Assembly: GCF_028641065.1 (NCBI RefSeq)
Contig: NC_073377.1
Coordinates: forward strand, 73,532,001-73,596,000
Length of the DNA stretch: 64,000 nt
DNA from: Leucoraja erinacea
Taxonomy: Eukaryota
Reading direction: 5' to 3'
Under the pieces are notes generated by a model, which saw only the letters and a program-made list of their open reading frames with translations, was not told the origin of the DNA and made no database searches. Shown here piece by piece: positions 54,209 through 56,002 of this stretch (position 1 is the first letter of the stretch; every line of letters starts with the position of its first letter). The position numbers were made by a program, and so were the translations under genes.

Positions 54209-56002
54209 GTTAGTATGGTACCATCAACTTGGGTTGTCTGACTAGAATTGAAAATGTATGTCTAATTTGTACAACCATTGTATATAAGCTAGATATTACC
54301 AGACCTGTGCACTGTGCATAATTTTTCATGCATGAAAGGATGTCTGTAGCACAGGATTTATAAAGCGGTTTTAAATGATAACTTGTACTTTATCTCTGTT
54401 GGATTTGTGGTTGTATCCAATAGTAATATTTTTTAGCCTTGCAGTTAAAGTTTAGAATCTTTAAAAAAAAAAGCTGGAAAATATTTAGCCAAATACACCA
54501 GAGCCTCCAGTGTCTTGTTATTTTCAGTCACTTAAATGCTGGTGTAAACTCAATAATATACTTCATGGCAGTCGGTAGATGTACCATCCTTGGGTTATGG
54601 TCAGCAGTTTATTTGCCCCTCTTTGTGTGAAGAGTTTAGTTTCTCTGCCTTTACCTTTAAAAGAGAGTGTGTCAGATATGATGAAAGCATATCTGATCAG
54701 CATCCATGCTACCCATCAGCATAAAGAAACACAGTGTGGTCTTGTGCTGTTGAGAACTCTCTGCTGATGGATACTGTTTTCTGGTTTGTTGTATTGGATG
54801 CCCTGGTCTCCAATTATGCCGAGAGCTATGCTTTGGATATTTTCTCAACAGATTTCTTAATCACTTGAATACCTTTTCTTTAAACTTCTAAATGCTACCT
54901 TATGTCTATTCATTTGACGTGGTTGTATTTTTTAGATGCATTCTAATCCTCATTCCTCAGGAATCTAGTTTTATTACTACAGTGATTTGCATTCCTACCT
55001 TCCAGAAAAACTGTGGAACTGGATGATATAGGTGTAGCAGTGATGATTTTCCCTGCTAAACTATGCAGCTGAAGTTGGTTTTAAAACTGGTTTTATAGTT
55101 GAAATGTTCTGGACTTTGACTGTCTGTACCTCTTTGATCATGGCTTTAGTGAAGCTTTTATCGTAGTTTGAACAGTTGTAATCTCCTGTGCAGTCTTGCT
55201 GCTGCTTTGTGTTTCTCCAAATAGCTTTGACTTTAAATCCTCTTTTGCAGTTTTGTGATTTCCTTATGTTAACCTTAGTTTTAGTTTAGGTCATTCTCTG
55301 GGAAATTCCTGTTTTTAACTACTGTATCTTCCCAACCTATGAGTGCCAGGTGGCATTTTGGACATTTGGGTATGTCATTGAGGATATAAACATACTGTGT
55401 AACTAATTTTGCATTACTCAGAGAAACATACTTAATCCTTTTCCTCCCTCCATCCAGCCCTCCTCCCAAACACTTATTATCAGTCTGATGGGGTATTGGT
55501 CAGTGCATTGCATAGTTTCTCTTGATGCACCATCGTTATTGTGTAATTTGTTTTCCCCGTCATTTCCATTAGACAGCAAAGTCCATTGCATTGTGTTAAT
55601 GGGATTTATACGTTGATGGAAATGGCAGGAATTAGAATTAGTTTTCTTCTTTAGTTCTGCATCCCTCCTTTACTAACCCTGTAAATCATGCTAGATTTTG
55701 AATGCTGAAAATAATGAGCCACTACTTTTCTATGTTATCTCGCTCTTTTCTGAATGTTTAATTCTCAGCAAAATTGTGAAAAATTAAAATCAGTTTAAGA
55801 TTTGCTTTCTCAACTGGATTAATTTTAAAATTGCTTTAATTAATTCCACCCTTAAGTTGCTGATTATTATATAACCGCATGTGTCTTGTTGGTAATTGAA
55901 GGGTTATGCGCTGCTGCAATATGCTGCTTTTAGTTTCCCTTTTAGCTTCGCTATGCATGATGCCTCTATTTGGTTAATTTTCCTGCATGAATTATCTTCT
56001 AG

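Follow-up and report, generated by a model that had tools for sequence, protein, structure and literature searches.

The skate Leucoraja erinacea carries two homologous versions, 7a and 7b, of the last coding exon of the ribosomal protein gene RPL9 (uL6). Exon 7a carries a stop codon of its own and is a cassette exon spliced onto 7b, not an alternative last exon. In four of four skate RNA runs, 7b is the default terminal exon. From our analysis of the intron upstream of 7a, we consider it an evenly balanced proposition that three GCATG sites form an Rbfox-bound silencer that helps to keep 7a out, with 7a being kept for some Rbfox-poor cell type.

The gene lies at 47141..58540 on the plus strand of the window, the whole 64-kb stretch of DNA that was analysed. 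Its earlier assignment as RPL9 is borne out: the translation of exons 2-6 and 7b (192 aa) is identical to the Leucoraja erinacea RefSeq 60S ribosomal protein L9 (P0003). Joining exons 2-6 to 7a also yields 192 aa, and the two proteins differ in seven residues (N169K, E183D, A186T and 189-192). The two exons are alike at 71 of 107 coding nucleotides and 28 of 35 amino acids. A search of the skate genome for RPL9 gave two matches, both inside the window, and no retrocopy or second RPL9 gene. The exons and their signals are the following.

47141..47164, plus strand: RPL9 non-coding exon 1, pyrimidine-rich with a 5'TOP-like start; start approximate, read from the sequence with no read check
48890..48936, plus strand: exon 2, with the ATG at 48891; from the sequence
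49028..49143, plus strand: exon 3; from its AG/GT borders
53277..53372, plus strand: exon 4; from RNA reads and sequence
53901..54033, plus strand: exon 5; from RNA reads and sequence
54128..54208, plus strand: exon 6, donor CTG/GTTAGT; from RNA reads and sequence
56003..56125, plus strand: cassette exon 7a, a-type C-terminus (N169, tail end AVVEASS); from the sequence and nine reads leading from 56125 to 7b
56107-56109, plus strand: stop TAG of 7a; the donor AAG/GTTAGA lies 16 nt 3' of the stop
58364..58540, plus strand: terminal exon 7b, b-type C-terminus (K169, tail end TVVPQHD); from RNA reads and sequence
58521 (ATTAAA) and poly(A) after 58540, plus strand: 3' end of 7b; from poly(A) loose ends (682 and 578 reads)

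Between and after 7a and 7b, at 56200-56350, 57300-58100 and 59040-59150, lie short interspersed repeats and one longer repeat fragment, to which many reads from other loci are drawn.

Splicing was followed in four raw RNA runs labelled with the same species (two single-cell and two bulk oligo-dT, from two studies), of each of which 1-5% was read and for all of which the tissue labels are hidden. The junction from exon 6 to 7b is present in all four, with 174, 165, 1,214 and 1,395 reads. Joints into or out of 7a are absent among the 15 of 105 joints listed for the four runs. A closer placement of reads from one bulk run (X23) put 14 reads on 55560-56195. Nine of these exit the donor at 56125 into the start of 7b, all in agreement, and 7a is therefore a cassette exon in which translation stops, so that 7b would serve as 3' UTR whenever 7a is included. 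The junction from exon 6 to 7a is not among the junctions listed for this placement, which required a minimum of three reads. The same nine of nine reads leaving the 7a donor led us to reject mutually exclusive or alternative last exons, since 7a and 7b co-occur in one mRNA. A poison exon of the kind by which ribosomal protein genes regulate themselves through NMD was also rejected, because 16 nt separate the stop from the junction and a full-length protein is closed by it. A premature stop triggers decay when it lies more than 50-55 nt upstream of the last junction, and by this rule the a-type mRNA would escape NMD. A separate exon 8 after 7a (acceptor near 56791, ATTAAA at 56912) was discarded with about two read pairs nearby and none of the nine donor reads. 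The acceptor-like site in 56791-56920 with its ATTAAA at 56912 is a possible remnant of an ancestral UTR exon 8.

Inclusion of 7a in X23 amounts to about 9/(9+1,214) = 0.7% (95% CI 0.3-1.4%), an estimate that joins two read placements of equal record number and different likeness cut-offs. From the depth over the bin with the first 18 nt of 7a, inclusion can be no higher than about 1.7% in one bulk run and about 1.6% in the other. Depth at the start of 7a is 0 in the two single-cell runs, where 3'-biased reads make the bound weaker. None of the four runs is a sample of high 7a inclusion. The X1 contigs, two unspliced pieces of low depth (3.6 and 5.4), are uninformative for splicing. The initial annotation had 7a spliced alternatively, with 7b used where it is skipped, and the reads support this. 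They do not show 7a to be a default form that is lost in muscle, heart and neurons alone: 7b dominates in four of four runs of hidden tissue. By a crude measure the splice sites of 7a are not visibly weaker than those of the constitutive exons (pyrimidine share 0.73 versus 0.59-0.82 in the other acceptors; donor GTTAGA versus GTTAGT for exon 6), and this favours active repression of 7a.

The candidate elements for such repression are listed below, with positions counted from the 7a acceptor (first exon base 56003) where they precede 7a.

55877-55881, plus strand: Rbfox primary motif GCATG, core start at -126
55954-55959, plus strand: TGCATG, hexamer at -49, GCATG core at -48
55984-55989, plus strand: TGCATG, hexamer at -19, core at -18, within the polypyrimidine stretch
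54329..54334, plus strand: single TGCATG, 121 nt after exon 6, a candidate site
58327..58332, plus strand: single TGCATG, 37 nt before 7b; both forms still use the 7b acceptor
55909..55928, plus strand: YGCY run of four copies; from the sequence

The GCATG and TGCATG sites of the initial annotation were all found correctly placed, and passages in the literature agree with it that the sites before 7a sit in the zone where Rbfox binding represses. Three (U)GCAUG sites fall within the proximal ~200 nt of the intron upstream of 7a, and the exon itself contains no UGCAUG. The window overall is not enriched in either motif (34 TGCATG versus 42.6 expected; 90 GCATG versus 125.7 expected). The probability of at least three GCATG in one 130-nt stretch is 1.4e-4 by Poisson, 5e-4 in 20,000 local dinucleotide shuffles and 7e-4 in 3,000 shuffles of intron 6. 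Among pyrimidine-rich AG sites in the 64-kb window, 1 of 207 on the plus strand and 2 of 183 on the minus strand have at least three GCAYG in the preceding 130 nt. The remaining six RPL9 acceptors have at most one GCATG each within 200 nt. A cluster beyond chance that is confined, among the RPL9 acceptors, to that of 7a supports Rbfox repression, as does the skipping of 7a in the reads together with the position of the sites in the repression zone. The TGCATG at -37 before 7b, which leaves the 7b acceptor in use, counts against it. The C-terminal domain of Rbfox (PF12414) gives matches above the cut-off on three contigs of the skate genome. Other GCATG clusters of the window lie at 33957-34365 in a GC-rich element resembling an inverted repeat; the two GC-rich stretches at 33940-34380 are inverted to each other, contain several GCATG and have the look of a repeat or small inverted-repeat element. 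Folding of the 7a acceptor region, for which there was no shuffle control, gave no usable signal.

The YGCY repeats, which had been taken for an MBNL-type cluster, are in place, and the case for MBNL regulation is weak. Six YGCY precede 7a in 130 nt, four of them within 55909-55928. Shuffles of the intron reach this count with P = 0.009, and so do 0.8% of all stretches of the window, but local shuffles give P = 0.67. In both close relatives 10 extra nt stand in the middle of the run, and one relative loses one copy.

These two coded relatives are represented by one contig each across the 55560-56195 region; X9, probably DNA, was used as relative sequence. They are ~4% diverged from the window, with 26 and 22 differing letters in 636 (24 and 21 listed). 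GCATG at 55877 and TGCATG at 55984 are identical in both, and TGCATG at 55954 is TGCACG in one. Since GCACG is counted as a primary Rbfox motif (10.1101/840272), GCAYG is kept at three of three sites in both relatives, with about one change expected in the 15 motif bases and one seen. That the only motif change keeps GCAYG was counted in favour of Rbfox repression. The motif zone is no more conserved than the upstream intron: 28 of 443 intronic sites vary, 8 of 130 in the 130-nt zone versus 20 of 313 upstream, which is no measurable constraint. At 55968, near the likely branch region, the window has A where T stands in both relatives and in two of two RNA reads from the species itself, an allele or assembly difference.

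Exon 7a itself carries the marks of coding constraint. Its open frame, stop and both splice sites are intact in the window and in the two relatives, where the core has three changes, all synonymous, and the tail has two that alter an amino acid. The skate exon shares 33 of 35 residues with a shark a-type exon. This constraint makes it likely that some cell type uses 7a, and the sequence evidence indicates that skate 7a is probably used somewhere. No a-type skate protein was found among the best 120 matches in each of three protein searches, in which cluster members are mostly hidden.

Both forms are present among the named proteins of seven species (Callorhinchus, Narcine, Salarias, Gadus, Neoarius, Paramormyrops and Cyprinus) in addition to this skate. 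The a form reads K-N-K and has 35 residues; the b form reads [KR]-K-K and mostly has 36, and records from paddlefish, sturgeon and whale shark have it too. In fused teleost gene models a precedes b. In whale shark, a model that bears the name WD repeat-containing protein 19-like (P0014) ends in the RPL9 b exon, an annotation fusion which implies that the b exon exists in that shark. Residue 169 is N in 117 of 119 tetrapod-type tails (K in two unnamed proteins, with one further change) and in two of two lamprey proteins, and the mammalian solved structures with displayed alignments differ from the b form there. Some invertebrate single-copy proteins carry K at this position, so the residue is tolerated either way. 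No a/b exon pair was seen among the tetrapod-type sequences examined, and an amniote-type locus (L003) has one exon 7 and a UTR exon 8, with no second copy of exon 7 in 7 kb. In a tree of 29 chosen 35-residue rows the labels change twice, versus 7.5 times in shuffles (0 of 500 as low), with no starred branch. These data allow, and do not prove, one duplication before the split of chondrichthyans and bony fishes. Eukaryotic RPL9 fragments under bacterial names (P0101, P0160, P0305 and P0388; Vibrio, Lactiplantibacillus, E. coli and Klebsiella) are likely contamination.

The upstream cluster is missing at the one teleost locus examined. A teleost-type locus (L004, minus strand, ~225-60) contains no GCATG in the 350 nt before its a exon. 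It shares the GTTAGA donor after the a exon, followed by a 124-nt intron and a short putative UTR exon with ATTAAA, and teleosts may thus use alternative last exons where the skate has a cassette. Its TGCATG lies ~52 nt after the a exon, a position that usually enhances inclusion. As L004 lacks the upstream cluster, the control would not be as old as the exon pair, and the data do not show the cluster to predate skates. Pattern scans for further fish loci returned two in metagenome contigs (one teleost-type, one amniote-type) and none in genome contigs, and yielded no intron from shark, ray or chimaera. When short ORFs were searched for a conserved TGC ATG in frame before 7a, no chondrichthyan ORF stood among the 120 listed of 327, and counting codon compatibility in translated upstream introns left the groups unseparated (4 of 27 a-type, 2 of 15 b-type and 2 of 9 amniote rows).

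Which form predominates may differ between lineages. Among listed RefSeq proteins, those of catshark are a-type and those of Leucoraja and Amblyraja are b-type, none with an isoform suffix; in NCBI practice a missing suffix denotes a single annotated product. Electric ray has both forms annotated. These records hint that the default form may have changed between lineages. Extra a-type RPL9 records (P0325, P0348) exist in catshark, on a contig that differs in length from that of the main gene, and in electric ray, as a second accession of the same protein; were these retrocopies, use of the a form in the germ line would be indicated. Elephant-shark cDNA proteins comprise at least five b-type and at least four a-type among those listed. 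The full-length cDNA project in that species drew on libraries of gills, intestine, kidney, liver, spleen and testis (PMC3466250), with no skeletal muscle, heart or brain among them, and from these libraries, by accession link, the b-type cDNAs probably derive. These are hints that skipping of 7a is broader than muscle, heart and neurons. A lead that points the other way comes from zebrafish, in which the rpl9 transcript ENSDART00000054338 makes up less than 0.3% of rpl9 around the mid-blastula transition (PMC3747860), whereas in whole embryos, apparently 33 hpf old, it takes 7,712 of the 36,236 counts (PMC9770155); its exon content is not given in the rows, and the annotations differ between the two sources. 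A look through six files of the zebrafish Esrp supplements did not find rpl9, and in the accessible rbpms2 supplements it appears in expression tables only, without significance.

In the mechanism that we propose, Rbfox would bind at -126, -49 and -19 before 7a, and the bound protein would block early spliceosome assembly on the exon, as at F1-gamma exon 9 and calcitonin exon 4. With 7a skipped, the uL6 supplied to ribosomes by default would carry the 7b tail. Rbfox2 in many tissues, together with Rbfox1/3 in muscle and neurons, would repress 7a, and a cell type or stage poor in Rbfox would include it and make the a-type protein from an mRNA predicted to escape NMD. Rbfox bound upstream of an exon is reported to promote skipping (10.1101/840272), and Fox-2 to be present in many cell lines (PMC2777236, PMC2018636). 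Skipping would extend beyond muscle, heart and neurons because broadly expressed Rbfox2 would suffice. A special case contained within this repression reading, to which we assign a low probability, takes 7a as the general form that Rbfox1/MBNL switch off in muscle, heart and neurons alone. The motif position, the F1-gamma precedent and the apparent predominance of the a form in teleosts and catshark agree with it, and the four runs of hidden tissue could all be neural, muscular or embryonic. It is opposed by the dominance of 7b in all four runs from two studies, by the b-type RefSeq proteins without isoform suffix in two skates, and by the b-type elephant-shark cDNAs, if these come from gill, intestine, kidney, liver, spleen or testis as the accession link suggests.

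The main competitor, less probable than repression by Rbfox and still a serious contender, holds that the motifs are incidental and that 7a is skipped through competition from the 7b acceptor, other silencers or missing enhancers, its rare use being set by another factor. The zone without measurable constraint, the teleost locus that shares the exon pair yet lacks the cluster, the single TGCATG near other exons without visible effect and the choice of the cluster after the fact from a 64-kb window all speak for it; the low probability of the cluster (~1e-4 to 7e-4) at the one alternatively used acceptor and the sole motif change that keeps GCAYG speak against it. Least probable, and in our judgement rather improbable, is that 7a is a decaying leftover in skates, included as splicing noise, with any Rbfox sites shutting it off for good. 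Inclusion of ~0.7% in the counted run and at most ~1.6% in a second, and the protein searches that brought up no a-type skate protein among their best matches, would suit such decay, but not the intact frame, stop and splice sites, the synonymous core changes, the 33 of 35 residues shared with a shark a exon and the electric ray with both forms annotated. Returning to repression by Rbfox, a bolder extension would have jawed fishes hold an ancient, splicing-controlled two-state uL6 (N169 versus K169 in a conserved 11-residue segment, plus distinct tails) that was lost in tetrapods; skates would have flipped the default from a to b by gaining the Rbfox silencer before 7a, with the a form reserved for a single restricted cell type, for instance the germ line. 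We regard this full scenario as unlikely.

It is an open issue whether variants of ribosomal proteins give rise to ribosomes that function differently. In RPL9 a single gene encodes two full-length forms of uL6, which differ in the tail and in one residue of a conserved segment and coexist from chimaera to teleosts, and the compact element that is the candidate for their control can be mutated. If the Rbfox reading is true, fishes could give a core ribosomal protein one or the other of two tails, and the lineage flip, if true, would be a switch of ribosome composition between lineages and tissues at the level of a cis element. If the motifs are incidental, the finding shrinks to an annotated, unstudied isoform pair. 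The isoforms are already known from RefSeq and Ensembl annotation, and proteomics of purified zebrafish ribosomes reports two Rpl9 isoforms, one more than 10-fold dominant (PMC11383705); the accessible text of that paper does not give the differing exons, the regulator or the evolutionary history. We found no paper on the duplicated RPL9 exon, its history or its control in a literature coverage that consists mostly of title listings and omits most subscription journals. This RPL9 instance and the possible lineage flip appear undescribed, and the regulatory logic is of a known kind.

Among the closest known systems is exon 9 of ATP synthase F1-gamma (ATP5F1C), which Fox-1 represses through GCAUG copies in intron 8 (PMC2018636, PMC2777236). 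Like it, 7a is a late cassette exon in a subunit of a housekeeping machine with several GCAUG within the intron upstream, and the predicted effect of Rbfox is skipping. For F1-gamma, binding and muscle-specific skipping were shown, whereas Rbfox binding at 7a is predicted from sequence. In contrast to F1-gamma exon 9, skipping of 7a is the default in all samples seen, and 7a is a tandem duplicate of the next exon. For exon 4 of calcitonin/CGRP, a UGCAUG at -34 keeps SF1 from the branch point (PMC2777236). Exon 7a similarly has UGCAUG inside its 3' splice-site region (-49, -19), but it has no exonic UGCAUG and, in the reads seen, is a cassette and not a poly(A)-bearing last exon. Splicing also alters the C-terminus of a core ribosomal protein in RPS24 (eS24), there by microexons of 3-22 nt (PMC11162997), whereas in RPL9 the exon is a duplicate of 35 codons in which a conserved residue has changed. 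In their tandem homologous exons, alternative homologous segments and conservation in distant species, 7a and 7b fit the tandem duplicated exon substitutions catalogued in human (PMC9741552, PMC8373072), in the accessible parts of which RPL9 does not occur. As in that class, the exons are ancient homologues and the proteins are identical except for a short homologous region; unlike in that class, skate 7a and 7b are spliced together, and it is the stop in 7a that makes the substitution.
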